Positions 3,406 through 62,743 of a stretch of DNA of 64,000 nucleotides are shown here, piece after piece (within the stretch, counting starts at the first letter, position 1; the number at the start of each line of letters is the position of its first letter). Below the pieces are notes generated by a model. That model saw only the letters and a program-made list of their open reading frames with translations. It did not search any database and had not been told where the DNA came from. This DNA is from Candidatus Woesearchaeota archaeon (GTDB lineage: Archaea; Nanobdellota; Nanobdellia; SCGC-AAA011-G17; PNOQ01), in assembly GCA_964603065.1 (NCBI GenBank), contig CAZRTL010000005.1:4700-68699 (forward strand). Reading direction: 5' to 3'. Both the position numbers and the translations under genes were made by a program.

Positions 3406-3597
3406 TTAAGGCATAGGCCTTTTAATGGTTATTGGTAAAACACCTTTTTCAAACTCCAACATTGCTATTTTTATAGGATTATAGTTAACTCCAGTCAACT
3501 CATCCTTATTCATCTTAAGCAATAAAGGTGCCCCCATAGATAATTGGAGGGCTCTTGCCCCAATTATTCTAGCTTTCTCGTACTTAGTTAGTTTCAT
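3406..3597 (-). CDS. rpoK: DNA-directed RNA polymerase subunit Rpo6 (RpoK/Rpb6)
   Basis: TKYEKARIIGARALQLSMGAP matches the Rpb6/RpoK core motif; its stop overlaps the start of the upstream gene. Confidence 0.75.
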   Translation of the reverse strand: MKLTKYEKARIIGARALQLSMGAPLLLKMNKDELTGVNYNPIKIAMLEFEKGVLPITIKRPMP

Positions 3598-4364
3598 TTC
3601 AAAACCTTCCTAATCTCAGCAGATTTTTTAACAGCTAACCCAATCATTTCATCTATCTGGTCTATTTCTAAACCTACCATTCCAGCCTTCTGCATAGCGT
3701 GAACATCTCCTTTCTCAGAAACAGCCACATTTATTCTTGCATCAAAGTTTTTTTCTTCTTCTAAAACTGGATCAACCATTGCTTTTCCACCAACATTAAC
3801 AACCGTACATGTTATTGGAATCAAGTTCAAGGGAATTTTATTCTTTGTAAACTCCCCAAATAAGATTCTATCTCCATCTAATTTAGGAAATACAGCACTC
3901 TTCAAAGCAGCAACTGCAGCCAAAGAAGCAGCATCTATTAGATTTCCCGCATTATTTATTGGGTAGATATCCAAGAAGATTGTCCATACTAATTCCCCTT
4001 CTCTAATACAAAGTTTCTTAGTATCCATCATCTTACTTTCCCTGATTCCCCTATCAACAACTCTAGCCAATTCAATAGCTTCTGGTCCAGGAGGTCCAGG
4101 TAAAAATTCGGGATCAGACATTGGACTTAGTTCAGCACCAGTAATTAATACTCCTTGATCAGGGCTATCTGGATAAGGTGTACCAACTGCCATCTTGACT
4201 CCAACTACAACTTCGGTTTCTCCCCAAGTCACTTTAGCAGAACCTTCAGCTTTATTAGAAATTCCCAATTCAATATTAATGGGTTTCCTTATTTCATCGA
4301 ATTTTCTTCCATCAATTCTAGCATCTTTATCCGCTAATTCCTTTATAAAATTGTTATTACTCAT
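3594..4364 (-). CDS. rrp42: exosome complex component Rrp42 (RNase PH-like)
   Basis: RIDGRKFDEIR...GSAKV RNase-PH motifs; lies in the canonical superoperon 3' of rrp41 with a 4-nt overlap. Confidence 0.8.
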   Translation of the reverse strand: MSNNNFIKELADKDARIDGRKFDEIRKPINIELGISNKAEGSAKVTWGETEVVVGVKMAVGTPYPDSPDQGVLITGAELSPMSDPEFLPGPPGPEAIELARVVDRGIRESKMMDTKKLCIREGELVWTIFLDIYPINNAGNLIDAASLAAVAALKSAVFPKLDGDRILFGEFTKNKIPLNLIPITCTVVNVGGKAMVDPVLEEEKNFDARINVAVSEKGDVHAMQKAGMVGLEIDQIDEMIGLAVKKSAEIRKVLK

Positions 4365-8646: not shown

Positions 8647-9132
8647 TTATAAAACTTCTTTTTTAACAAAATCCACTATATCTTTAATTTTATATCCTTC
8701 ACTAGTGTTAACAATCAATAAATTATGCTTTTTTTCTTTGGCCTCAATAACAAAGCTATCAAAAATCTCAACTTCCAGATTATCTTTTATTTTCTTAGAA
8801 GAATATTTTCTCTTTTTTAATCTCTTCTTCAATTCAGAAATGTCACAAGTTGTAATTATGCACAAATCAACATATTTTTTTGGAACTAAATGAGCGAAAA
8901 TAGAATCAATAACCAAATTTTTACCTTTTTTTATTTTTTCAACCAAAAACCTAATTAGTTTCTTTTCATCCATTATCAAACAATCTTTTTCTTTATCAAA
9001 ACCCTCCGATAATTTATTTTTTTTGATTTCCTTGGTAACATCAATATATTCGAAATTCAAACTTTTAGCCAATTTTTTGCTTAAATTAGTTTTACCAGAA
9101 CCGACTGAACCCGAAACACAAATTATTTTCAT
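8647..9132 (-). CDS. P-loop NTP kinase, adenylate kinase 6 / Fap7-like
   Basis: MKIICVSGSVGSGKT Walker A; ~160 aa, the size of AK6/Fap7. Confidence 0.5.
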   Translation of the reverse strand: MKIICVSGSVGSGKTNLSKKLAKSLNFEYIDVTKEIKKNKLSEGFDKEKDCLIMDEKKLIRFLVEKIKKGKNLVIDSIFAHLVPKKYVDLCIITTCDISELKKRLKKRKYSSKKIKDNLEVEIFDSFVIEAKEKKHNLLIVNTSEGYKIKDIVDFVKKEVL

Positions 9133-10141: not shown

Positions 10142-10198
10142 CGTCAAATTCTTAAAAAACAAAATATTTATATACTATAGTTCAACTATAGTTATTCT

Positions 10199-10417
10199 AT
10201 GGCAACAACAATACAGGTCAGTCAAGAACTAAAAGATAAGTTATCCTTTCGAAAAGCATCTGAAAAAGATAGTTATGAAGAGGTCATTTGGGATTTATTA
10301 GAAGATACAATGGAATTAAACGACCAAACAAAAAAAGAAATTGAGATTGCAAGGAAAGAATTTAAACAAGGTAAATTTGTAACACACTCTCAATTAAAAA
10401 AAGAATTGGGATTATAA
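10199..10417 (+). CDS. putative antitoxin (small RHH/Phd-like partner of RelE)
   Basis: 72-aa ORF directly abutting the RelE/ParE gene (stop/start adjacent). Confidence 0.45.
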   Translation: MATTIQVSQELKDKLSFRKASEKDSYEEVIWDLLEDTMELNDQTKKEIEIARKEFKQGKFVTHSQLKKELGL

Positions 10418-10666
10418 ATGTATGAAATAAATTACTCTAATTCTGCAAGAAAATTTCTTAAAAAATTACCAAAAGAGAAACAAAAACATATTTTATCAGT
10501 TTTAGAAAGGTCAAGGATACGACCAGAATCTCACTTTGAACGATTAGTGGGTGAAAAAATTTATAAAATAAGAGCAGGAGATTACAGAATAATTGCAGAT
10601 ATTTACAATCAAAAAATGCTAATTTTAGTAATAAAAATAGGTCACAGGAAAAATATATACAAATAA
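10418..10666 (+). CDS. relE: RelE/ParE-family type II toxin
   Basis: IYKIRAGDYRIIADIYNQKMLILVIKIGHRKNIY is the typical RelE/ParE C-terminal consensus. Confidence 0.75.
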   Translation: MYEINYSNSARKFLKKLPKEKQKHILSVLERSRIRPESHFERLVGEKIYKIRAGDYRIIADIYNQKMLILVIKIGHRKNIYK

Positions 10667-42299: not shown

Positions 42300-42384
42300 A
42301 TTATTTTTATGGGGGCTATAAAATCCCCCCTTCTTCCTTTATAATCAAAACCTTTAAAAACCATTTAATTTCCTTTTAAAGTAT

Positions 42385-44148
42385 ATGAATCAATTACCCC
42401 CAACCCAACCCAATATGCCTTCTCCTGAAGAACAGGAAAAAATAAAAGCTAAAATTGAGAAGATAAAGGCAAAGGTTGAAAAATTTAAAGATAAAATTCT
42501 AAAAACTCATAAAAAAGAAGTTATGGGTGTGGCTTTACTACCTCCGAAAAAAGAGGAGCCTGACAAAATTAATGTTCTAATCGTAGTTGACGATTCAAAA
42601 GCAGAATTTAGACCAGATTTCAAACTAAGAGATAAAACATTCACAGAATTATCAAAAGTAGCAAAAGAGCAGGATAAGGATTTAATTCCAGAAGTTTATA
42701 CAGTATCCGAAATAAAAGAATCATTATACGATTCAAAATATGAAGTTTTGCAATTAGTAGCAATGTCTGCTATCCTATATGATCCAGCAGATTTCTTAGG
42801 AGCATTAAAAATTTCAGAAGTGCATAAAAGCATGGTTCTACAAAAATTCGAAAAATATATTGTTAGTTATGTAGCAGCCGGTTCATTATTTAGAGGAGAA
42901 AAATCCAATGATATTGACGTATATGTTGTTATTGATGATACTGATGTTAGAAGGATGACTCGTGCTGAACTTAGAGATAAATTAAGATCATTAATAATTT
43001 CACAAGGTTTTGAAGCCGCGGCAATGACTGGCGTCAAAAAAGAATTTCACGTTCAAATTTACATCTTAACTGATTTCTGGGAATCTATCAAAGATGCGCA
43101 CCCAGTTATATTCACATTATTAAGAGATGGAGTTCCAATTTATGATAGGGGAGTTTTCACACCATGGAGACTATTACTAAATATGGGACGTATCAGGCCC
43201 TCTCCAGAAGCAATCGATATGCAAATGGACACAGGTGAAAAATTACTAGAAAGAGCAAGAAAAAAATTACTTATGATTGCCGGTGAAGATTTATATTATG
43301 GAATTTTAAATCCTTCTCAAGCAGCACTTATGCTTTACGGAATTTCTCCACCAACACCAAAAGAAACTGTTAAGTTACTAGAAGAAGTATTCGTGAAGAA
43401 AGAAAAAATCTTAGAACAAAGATATGTTAATATTCTAGAAAAAATCAGAGTATTCTTTAAAGGAATTGAACATGGGAAAGTAAAAGATATTTCTGGAAAA
43501 GAAATTGATGAGTTATTAAAAGATTGTGACGATTATTTAAAAAGAATAAAGAAATTATTTACACAAATAGAAAAGAAGGCAGAAAAAGAAACCTTCACAG
43601 AATTATATAACACTTTAATAAAAACTGTAGGGGATGCACTAGCTGCAGAGAGTATTAAATATACAAAACTAGATTTAGGGTTTAAAAAATTCTGCCAAAA
43701 AGAAAACCTACCGGAATCTCTGGTTAACAACTTAAAATCATTCATGAAAGCACACCAAGAGTTTAAAGCTAAAAAATTAATAAAAGCAGAATCTGATAAA
43801 ATCAAGAGAGAAATCAGAACTTTCTTAAGGATTGTAGTTGAACACGGACAAAGAAAGAAATTCTTGGGTGTAGAAAGAGCAAAAATAAGATTTAAAGTAA
43901 AAGATAAAATGGGAGAAGTTCTCTTACTAAAAGATCAGGCATTTATTGTTAAAGATTTAAAACAAAAGGACAAAATAGAGAAAGTAGATTTAGTTAAAGG
44001 TAGATTGAAAAAAGCAGAAAAATCAACTAGGGATGAATATGATAAAACACTAGTCGATGTAGAAGTTCCGCAGTCCATTACTCTAACTCCAGAATTATTT
44101 AGCGATTTAGAAAAACTAGTTGGTAAAGATATCGAAATATTACTTTAA
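42385..44148 (+). CDS. tandem nucleotidyltransferase-domain protein (degenerate NTase + NTase + helical C-domain)
   Basis: GSLFRGEKSNDIDVYVVIDD (GS..DxD); an upstream degenerate copy; the C-terminal half is paralogous to 49624..50502. Confidence 0.6.
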   Translation: MNQLPPTQPNMPSPEEQEKIKAKIEKIKAKVEKFKDKILKTHKKEVMGVALLPPKKEEPDKINVLIVVDDSKAEFRPDFKLRDKTFTELSKVAKEQDKDLIPEVYTVSEIKESLYDSKYEVLQLVAMSAILYDPADFLGALKISEVHKSMVLQKFEKYIVSYVAAGSLFRGEKSNDIDVYVVIDDTDVRRMTRAELRDKLRSLIISQGFEAAAMTGVKKEFHVQIYILTDFWESIKDAHPVIFTLLRDGVPIYDRGVFTPWRLLLNMGRIRPSPEAIDMQMDTGEKLLERARKKLLMIAGEDLYYGILNPSQAALMLYGISPPTPKETVKLLEEVFVKKEKILEQRYVNILEKIRVFFKGIEHGKVKDISGKEIDELLKDCDDYLKRIKKLFTQIEKKAEKETFTELYNTLIKTVGDALAAESIKYTKLDLGFKKFCQKENLPESLVNNLKSFMKAHQEFKAKKLIKAESDKIKREIRTFLRIVVEHGQRKKFLGVERAKIRFKVKDKMGEVLLLKDQAFIVKDLKQKDKIEKVDLVKGRLKKAEKSTRDEYDKTLVDVEVPQSITLTPELFSDLEKLVGKDIEILL

Positions 44149-62018: not shown

Positions 62019-62134
62019 AAAATAAAATTAGTAACCTCCATTTATAAAATTTATTCTAGGGGTTTAATATTACTAATAAGTAATTACAGTAGAAAAGCTT
62101 AAATAAGAAAAAATTATCAAAATGTTCTATTAAA

Positions 62135-62576
62135 ATGAGAGAGAGAGAGATTATTCAAAACAATAAAAAAAGAACTTGATAATGGAAAATCGCCCAGCGA
62201 GGCAATTTCAGCAATAAAAGAAGATCCAAACTTACACAAAGAAGCAAATTTATTTTGTGAACAATGTGGGAATTGTTGCAAAAAAAGGTGCAGTAATATA
62301 GAAGTAGGAGAAGATGGATTAACTTATTGTCTATTACATGATGAAGATCCTGGAGAAAAAAAAGTTCCGAGCTCTTCAGATATCTATCAAAAACTAGATC
62401 CTTCAGAATTCACAAAGCCAGAAGTATGTCGGAGCTATGGTCCTCATACTGTATTTTCTGCAATTTTAAGTTATGAAATAAAAGGTGACTGGGCTATGGC
62501 TCAAGAAACAAAGAGATTTTGTAAAGGGGCACATAGTATGTTCATAGAATTTGAAAAATGGAAGAATCTAAGCTAA
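62135..62576 (+). pseudogene. YkgJ/UPF0153-like CxxCxxCC protein gene, out of frame with its ATG as sequenced
   Basis: Frame +1 is open for 145 codons (62139-62573; FCEQCGNCCKKRC) but has no ATG/GTG/TTG near its 5' end. ATG 62135 joins it only if the AG tract has 7 units. Confidence 0.4.
62138..62149. repeat. (AG)6 dinucleotide tract immediately 3' of an ATG
   Basis: atg AGAGAGAGAGAG a tt at 62135-62152. Confidence 0.9.
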
Positions 62577-62743
62577 AGGAAATACCTGATTATGAATTAA
62601 ACAGGAGGAGAGTAATAACTGGAATAACTCTTGCTACACTAATACTTGAATCACTTATATTCTTTTCAGTGAAAAATCAAGATTTAGAAGTTGAAAAAAA
62701 ACCAGAATATAATATTTCCTCAATCCATAAAACCCCTTATTAG
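62558..62743 (+). CDS. hypothetical 61-aa protein with one TM
   Basis: ORF; overlaps the 3' end of the CxxCxxCC frame. Confidence 0.2.
   Translation: MEESKLKEIPDYELNRRRVITGITLATLILESLIFFSVKNQDLEVEKKPEYNISSIHKTPY

Follow-up and report, generated by a model that had tools for sequence, protein, structure and literature searches.

An (AG)6 tract sets the start codon of a conserved cysteine-cluster gene out of frame in a Candidatus Woesearchaeota archaeon

Organization of the locus

The window analysed here is a stretch of 64,000 nt from a Candidatus Woesearchaeota archaeon, and coordinates given without a contig label refer to it. The ancestral start codon of a small cysteine-cluster gene, ATG 62135-62137 (+ strand), is followed directly by an (AG)6 tract at 62138-62149 (+). 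The same tract reads as (GA)7 at 62137-62150 when the G of the ATG and A62150 are counted. The ATG lies 1 nt off the frame of the gene body, which is located at 62139..62576 (+) and comprises 145 open codons and the stop codon TAA (62574-62576). Translation from the ATG would give a 14-codon product, MREREIIQNNKKRT, ending at TGA 62177-62179 (+). The gene body occupies the +1 frame, which is closed by TGA 62136-62138, is open from 62139 onwards and contains FCEQCGNCCKKRC. The first ATG, GTG or TTG in this long frame is at 62496 and would yield 26 aa only, and the ORF listing has no entry there. The long-frame translation includes LFKTIKKELDNGK.... Either one additional AG unit or the loss of two units joins ATG 62135 to the long frame, giving (AG)7 or (AG)4. 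The present (AG)6 is one unit below (AG)7, the in-frame length that would encode R-E-R-E-R, and the 3′ end of the tract encodes the conserved E-R of an ERLF motif. The arrangement described in the initial annotation, with ATG 62135, six AG units, a 14-codon ATG frame and a start-less +1 frame of 145 codons, was confirmed in the sequence, as was the fusion of the ATG to the long frame by one added AG.

The 14-mer of the tract was found in 0 of 100 dinucleotide-preserving shuffles and is beyond chance, and the remaining dinucleotide runs in the 64-kb window are all of four units or fewer. An AG tract as a by-product of codon choice is unlikely. GAG makes up 21.5% of Glu codons, and encoding RERER entirely with AG has p ~0.018; such encoding is not expected from codon choice because GAG is that infrequent among Glu codons.

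A TATA-like box, CTTAAATAAG, was read from the sequence at 62098..62107 (+), ~28-37 nt 5′ of the ATG. Comparable A/T-rich boxes are found at a similar distance 5′ of the homologues in L021, L034 and L035. If it acts as its position suggests, the box predicts a leaderless or very short-leader mRNA.

Downstream, an ORF of 61 aa with a single transmembrane segment (62558..62743, +) begins within the cysteine-cluster gene, sharing its final 19 nt, and was called in every assembly. The two are probably co-transcribed, and through polarity or coupling the frameshift may affect the 61-aa ORF as well. Its counterpart at the orthologous locus is 72 aa long (MEE.K.K.PD followed by a transmembrane segment; L021:3601-3819). 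Within the 3411-3819 region of L021, a start-less stretch between the gene and the 72-aa ORF resembles a second copy, EERECPDKKRLIYLTAAIIAIECLLLY.

The long frame is a conserved gene

The long frame is a genuine conserved gene. An open frame of 145 codons would arise by chance at the local composition with p ~1.3e-5. The codon-usage score of the long frame was +52.9 bits, against −46.6 and −42.7 bits for the other two frames, which hold 10 and 11 stops. Per codon the long frame scored 0.365 bits, and the long genes of the window scored 0.45 ± 0.17. An exhaustive HMMER search over 1.84 billion cluster representatives returned 23 homologues at E ≤ 0.001 (best E 6e-32), 18 of which, at E ≤ 1e-10, cover residues 2-143. 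The homologues are 106-194 aa in length, mostly 136-165 aa with a near full-length match, the exception being one partial match to a 535-aa protein. Ten residues are invariant in the family (C40, G44, C46, C47, C51, C64, L66, H67, P94 and C97), and in the alignment the window sequence keeps 10/10 of them. An AlphaFold model built on the family alignment had a mean pLDDT of 95.7, with helix 1 formed by residues 2-14 at pLDDT ~98. Because helix 1 starts at residue 2, the residues encoded right after the tract belong to the fold.

The product of the repaired gene is 147 aa in length, with neither a signal peptide nor a membrane segment. This cysteine-cluster protein is cytoplasmic; it is neither a surface protein nor one of restriction-modification. 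A CxxCGxCCxxxC motif, CEQCGNCCKKRC, is encoded at 62256..62291 (+) and is the presumed metal or Fe-S ligand cluster. A conserved C-L-L-H, of which C64, L66 and H67 are the invariant residues, is encoded at 62328..62339 (+). Seven conserved Cys residues together with the His are presumed to form a metal or Fe-S site, a ligand role to which the conservation pattern points. Homologues, codon usage and the orthologue described below all bear out the earlier claim that the gene is real and that its frame is broken exactly at the AG tract.

Protein family and genomic context

By full-length homology and by synteny with one member, P0003, the long-frame protein belongs to an unnamed family (P0001-P0025) that occurs mainly in DPANN archaea; one relative is labelled Aenigmarchaeota. 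The protein had been called YkgJ-like. This holds at the level of the CxxCGxCC motif, which is present as CEQCGNCC with C43 conserved in at least 90% of sequences, and not at the level of a family assignment. Pfam PF03692 (CxxCxxCC) gave no match for the window protein and none for the 23 family members (0/23), even at E ≤ 1. The NCBIfam YcgN models matched two of the 23 relatives faintly (E 0.0015-0.004) and did not match the window protein. Searches of Pfam, NCBIfam and PDB sequences with the window protein returned no family assignment. With PF03692/UPF0153 (YkgJ, YcgN; putative zinc- or iron-chelating proteins) the family shares a small size and a CxxCGxCC motif near the N-terminal third. 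The family is an uncharacterised one of DPANN archaea with a very confidently predicted fold and no solved structural relative.

No relative of the protein was found on the genome contigs of GTDB species representatives, and a scan of metagenome contigs returned one distant homologue, in L026. An exact 28-mer adjoining the tract had no match among those metagenome contigs, a collection that does not include the contigs of this locus. A word-index search with the repaired protein gave no match, a weak negative result since the same index also missed P0001-P0013, which were included in the query alignment. In other genomes the family gene lies among housekeeping and translation genes and has no constant partner; its neighbours there include S3Ae and EF-2, GatB, RIO1 and FtsZ, an RNase Z-like metallo-beta-lactamase gene and an Obg-like GTPase. 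The nearest GTDB species representative has a GluRS 73% identical to the window GluRS; this representative and most other matches are labelled Candidatus Woesearchaeota. Archaeal ribosomal genes are present in the window too, and the organism is accordingly an uncultured DPANN archaeon whose own species lacks a representative genome. The GluRS/L7Ae slot of this nearest representative holds an unrelated 129-aa lipoprotein-like ORF (L009:3517-3906). The GluRS/L7Ae intergenic slot turns over between related Woesearchaeota.

Start codon and syntenic orthologue

Most homologues begin with M and 3-8 residues in front of (E/K)RLF, and the long frame of the window opens with E-R-E-R-L-F. P0003 (136 aa), the relative nearest in sequence at 57% identity, is an intact syntenic orthologue from a sister woesearchaeote. 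The window and the P0003 locus have the same gene order: GluRS on the opposite strand, the gene, a small transmembrane ORF, L7Ae, S28e, L24e and NDK. The orthologue begins ATG AAT CCC ACC GAA ATA TTG TTT AAA ACA ATA. Counted from the first base of the ATG, the Leu codon is preceded by 18 nt in the orthologue and by 16 nt in the window. An (AG)7 tract would give M-RERER-LFKTI, which is exactly collinear with M-NPTEI-LFKTI of the orthologue. One AG unit was lost from the window, as indicated by its 2-nt deficit and by the restoration of collinearity with (AG)7. ATG 62135 is, on this comparison, the true start of the gene. The comparison with orthologues proposed in the initial annotation thus placed the start at ATG 62135, and the homologue N-termini gave no support for a start further downstream.

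The tract in independent assemblies

The consensus sequences of eight assemblies were compared: JGI 3300009008 and 3300007510, Logan SRR8062321, and assemblies of five ENA BioSamples (SAMN10231912, SAMN10231913, SAMN10231914, SAMN10231923 and SAMN11854485). They had been retrieved by exact-protein look-up of the neighbours L7Ae, S28e, orf61 and GluRS, and some may share raw data. All eight (8/8) contain (AG)6. They represent at least five BioSamples, three pipelines (JGI, ENA third-party and Logan) and two projects. The assemblies are 99.98-100% identical to the window over 1-7.6 kb. Apparent differences in L028, L029 and L022 are scaffold N-gaps, and L028 also has a divergent stretch at its scaffold end. 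The same look-ups with L7Ae, S28e, orf61 and GluRS, used to seek intermediate strains, returned this one genotype, and a single nearly clonal genotype is what has been sampled. The lesion is therefore present in the DNA at the true start of the gene, with the remainder of the gene intact and with one tract length in every assembly.

No gene was called in this slot in any of the assemblies, and every annotation pipeline left a 540-nt "intergenic" gap here. A real gene can be hidden in annotation as such a gap.

Beyond the right end of the window, a ParE/MazE-like toxin-antitoxin pair follows NDK (L003/L004, 5203-7633). After the pair come a DDE_Tnp_1 transposase and an MFS gene in sample 3300007510, and IF-2 in 3300009008. 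The genotype being identical apart from this, the difference is a strain-level rearrangement or an IS insertion. Inside the window, at ~10181-10666 (+), which corresponds to L031:1114-1581, another ParE-like gene (82 aa) lies next to a partner of 72 aa; the two abut in the same frame (stop 10415-10417, ATG 10418).

Origin of the frameshift

We favour, with modest confidence, a null allele produced by slipped-strand mispairing and fixed at the consensus level in one clonal population, that is, a stable OFF allele or a young pseudogene. An (AG)7 run specific to this lineage would have occupied the first codons and encoded M-RERER-LF. The run would probably have grown by slippage from the GAR-AGA codons of the conserved E-R. 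P0001 reads GAA AGA TTA TTC at the same positions, and because of this the tract probably nucleated on the E-R codons. Slipped-strand mispairing during replication would then have deleted one AG unit (−2 bp). A ribosome starting at ATG 62135 would read 14 codons and stop, and the 147-aa protein would not be made. Reversion would be possible in principle by regain of one AG unit. We infer slippage as the mechanism, a recent date for the event and the loss of expression. If correct, the locus illustrates cleanly how a streamlined genome can lose a conserved gene through slippage at a repeat confined to one lineage.

Several observations count against the null allele. The 145 codons after the tract are undecayed: there is no stop, although 6.4% of possible substitutions would make one, and no ligand residue has been lost. 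Either the event is very young or selection still acts on the frame. Among ~80 genes of the window no other coding frame lacks a start, and pseudogenes are thus not abundant in the genome. The tract is placed exactly where a contingency repeat would sit. Moreover, (AG)6 is the consensus state, and a minority ON subpopulation would be invisible in consensus sequences. In favour of the null allele, the window matches 27 of 32 conserved columns versus 30 of 32 for the orthologue, a modestly longer branch for the window lineage that is consistent with some relaxation. An undecayed frame, a sole start-less gene and a modest branch fit a very recent inactivation, a switching locus or recoding, which the consensus data cannot separate.

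A sequencing or assembly error in an organism that truly carries (AG)7 would account for the perfect collinearity of the repaired gene with its orthologue, and dinucleotide repeats are prone to stutter. PCR stutter at seven units, however, gives a minority of reads and not the consensus. A consensus error is very unlikely because at least five BioSamples and three pipelines agree on (AG)6, identical in eight assemblies from two projects; this alternative of the initial annotation is effectively refuted. Normal expression from another start in the long frame, downstream or non-canonical, is extremely improbable. The frame is intact and offers the near-cognate codons TTA (62151) and ATA (62163), but it has no ATG, GTG or TTG before 62496 and is closed directly upstream by TGA 62136-62138. 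In addition, homologues begin 3-8 residues before the conserved RLF, and a downstream start would truncate a fold whose helix 1 begins at residue 2 (pLDDT 98). Recoding, by which DNA fixed at (AG)6 would still give the full-length protein through a −2 ribosomal slip or through RNA-polymerase slippage adding AG, is quite improbable. It has points in its favour: on the geometry of the sequence, a −2 shift on A_GAG_AGA would keep full P- and A-site pairing and land in the long frame, and the downstream frame is undecayed. The slip site would lie at codons 2-5, the first codons, where reading-frame maintenance is weakest, and, given a functional TATA-like box at 62098-62107, the tract would be part of the first ~20 nt transcribed. 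Against these points, no downstream stimulatory structure was found (MFE −9.6 kcal/mol, z = +1.03, with 176 of 200 shuffles folding at least as well), Rfam gave no match at E ≤ 1, and no relative shares the frameshift, each of the 22 homologue sequences retrieved (22/22) being an ordinary unshifted ORF. In archaea, as far as we know, neither programmed −2 shifts nor dinucleotide transcriptional slippage has been documented. That the AG tract is itself an expression device, a −2 slip by the ribosome or RNA polymerase restoring the frame in a fraction of products, is decidedly improbable. If recoding were true, the gene would be kept at a low, tunable level, and neither archaea nor any other cellular organism would have provided such a dinucleotide-repeat −2 recoding site before. 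Two other translational routes were rejected. A +1 ribosomal shift allows no tRNA re-pairing on AGA/GAG in the +1 register. With TGA as a sense codon, the very next codon of the ATG frame is a TAA, and following the long frame upstream leads to TAA 62100 without passing a start.

The initial annotation had pointed to the classic geometry of slipped-strand phase variation. Under true phase variation the tract would toggle often between in-frame (n = 4, 7, 10) and out-of-frame lengths, and the sampled populations would be mostly OFF. The geometry is the textbook one, with the repeat at codons 2-6, one unit restoring the frame and an orthologue collinear with (AG)7, and it is the design of H. pylori oipA (PMC4225565). 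The tract far exceeds the length expected by chance and is confined to this lineage; the remainder of the gene is intact with normal codon usage, and no other gene of the window is start-less. The data nevertheless went against active switching: the eight consensus assemblies contain no length variant, and the ON products of (AG)1, (AG)4, (AG)7, (AG)10 and (AG)13 were absent from ~15 billion public proteins in an exact look-up. Other genes with 5′ dinucleotide tracts, a further expectation of that proposal, were not found either. The 64-kb window and ~10 kb more of the same contig hold no other 5′ tract of comparable length and no other dinucleotide run above four units, leaving a single locus in ~74 kb of genome, and the 5′ repeat is absent from all seven homologue gene starts read as DNA, the orthologue included. 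In ~100 kb of other Woesearchaeota loci, a few short runs were all that was seen. The product is cytoplasmic and its gene lies among translation genes in relatives, which is not a typical target. The prior is also low, the archaeal distribution of such loci being named as future work in a 2025 review (PMC11868660). Phase variation is thus unlikely. Of the features of a contingency locus, a frame-switching repeat position and a tract longer than composition predicts are present; length differences between samples (in consensus sequences), both ON and OFF states, and several loci (in ~74 kb) were not seen. These data do not support an evolved, actively switching contingency locus. Should the tract toggle at the level of reads, archaea would have a concrete, testable case of a contingency locus based on a simple repeat. 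Its host would be a DPANN lineage with a reduced genome, and the gene concerned would encode a cytoplasmic protein instead of a surface one.

Other repeats were noted in passing. The only other 5′ repeat in the stretch searched is (CCCAA)3 at 42399-42413, which covers codons 5-10 of a 587-aa ORF (42385..44148, +) and encodes PPTQPN. Gain or loss of a single unit would alter the frame, but at three units the repeat is short. A G5/C6 inverted repeat, GGGGGCTATAAAATCCCCCC, is located 5′ of the same ORF at 42312-42331 and is terminator-like for the preceding gene. In another DPANN genome, the Nanoarchaeota MAG H51-bin037_1, G7 and G8 homopolymers lie within 1.4 kb of each other (L019:7691-7697 and 9025-9032) and are possible slippage-prone tracts.

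Comparison with known systems

Repeats in archaeal coding regions have been surveyed earlier (PMC3315296, PMC2831843), and the 2025 review of phase variation lists archaeal phylogenies among those in which the distribution of loci remains to be expanded (PMC11868660). In H. pylori, oipA is switched by slipped-strand mispairing at CT repeats near the 5′ end of its coding sequence, in the part for the signal peptide, and is in frame at 6 or 9 units (PMC4225565). The woesearchaeote locus shares with oipA, and also with hopZ and sabA, a CT/AG tract in the first codons whose unit count sets the ATG frame, and ~6-9 units are the functional lengths in oipA (PMC4225565). In H. pylori the tract length varies between and within strains, many loci are involved and the products are outer-membrane proteins, whereas the woesearchaeote has no variation in eight assemblies, a single locus, a cytoplasmic protein and an archaeal host. 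Six or seven units are near the lower limit for fast switching.

Programmed −2 ribosomal frameshifting is known from nsp2TF of arteriviruses. Common to both is that a two-base shift with tRNA pairing kept would give the needed frame; the locus described here differs in having no stimulator, no conservation and a cellular archaeal setting.

In the reduced genome of the symbiont Buchnera, frameshifts at poly(A) tracts are partly rescued by transcriptional slippage. Such cases involve homopolymers and a rescue shown at the RNA level, while here the repeat is a dinucleotide and is known from DNA alone. The woesearchaeote gene shares with them a simple-repeat frameshift in a conserved, otherwise intact gene, a small-genome host-dependent organism and a downstream frame that is undecayed.
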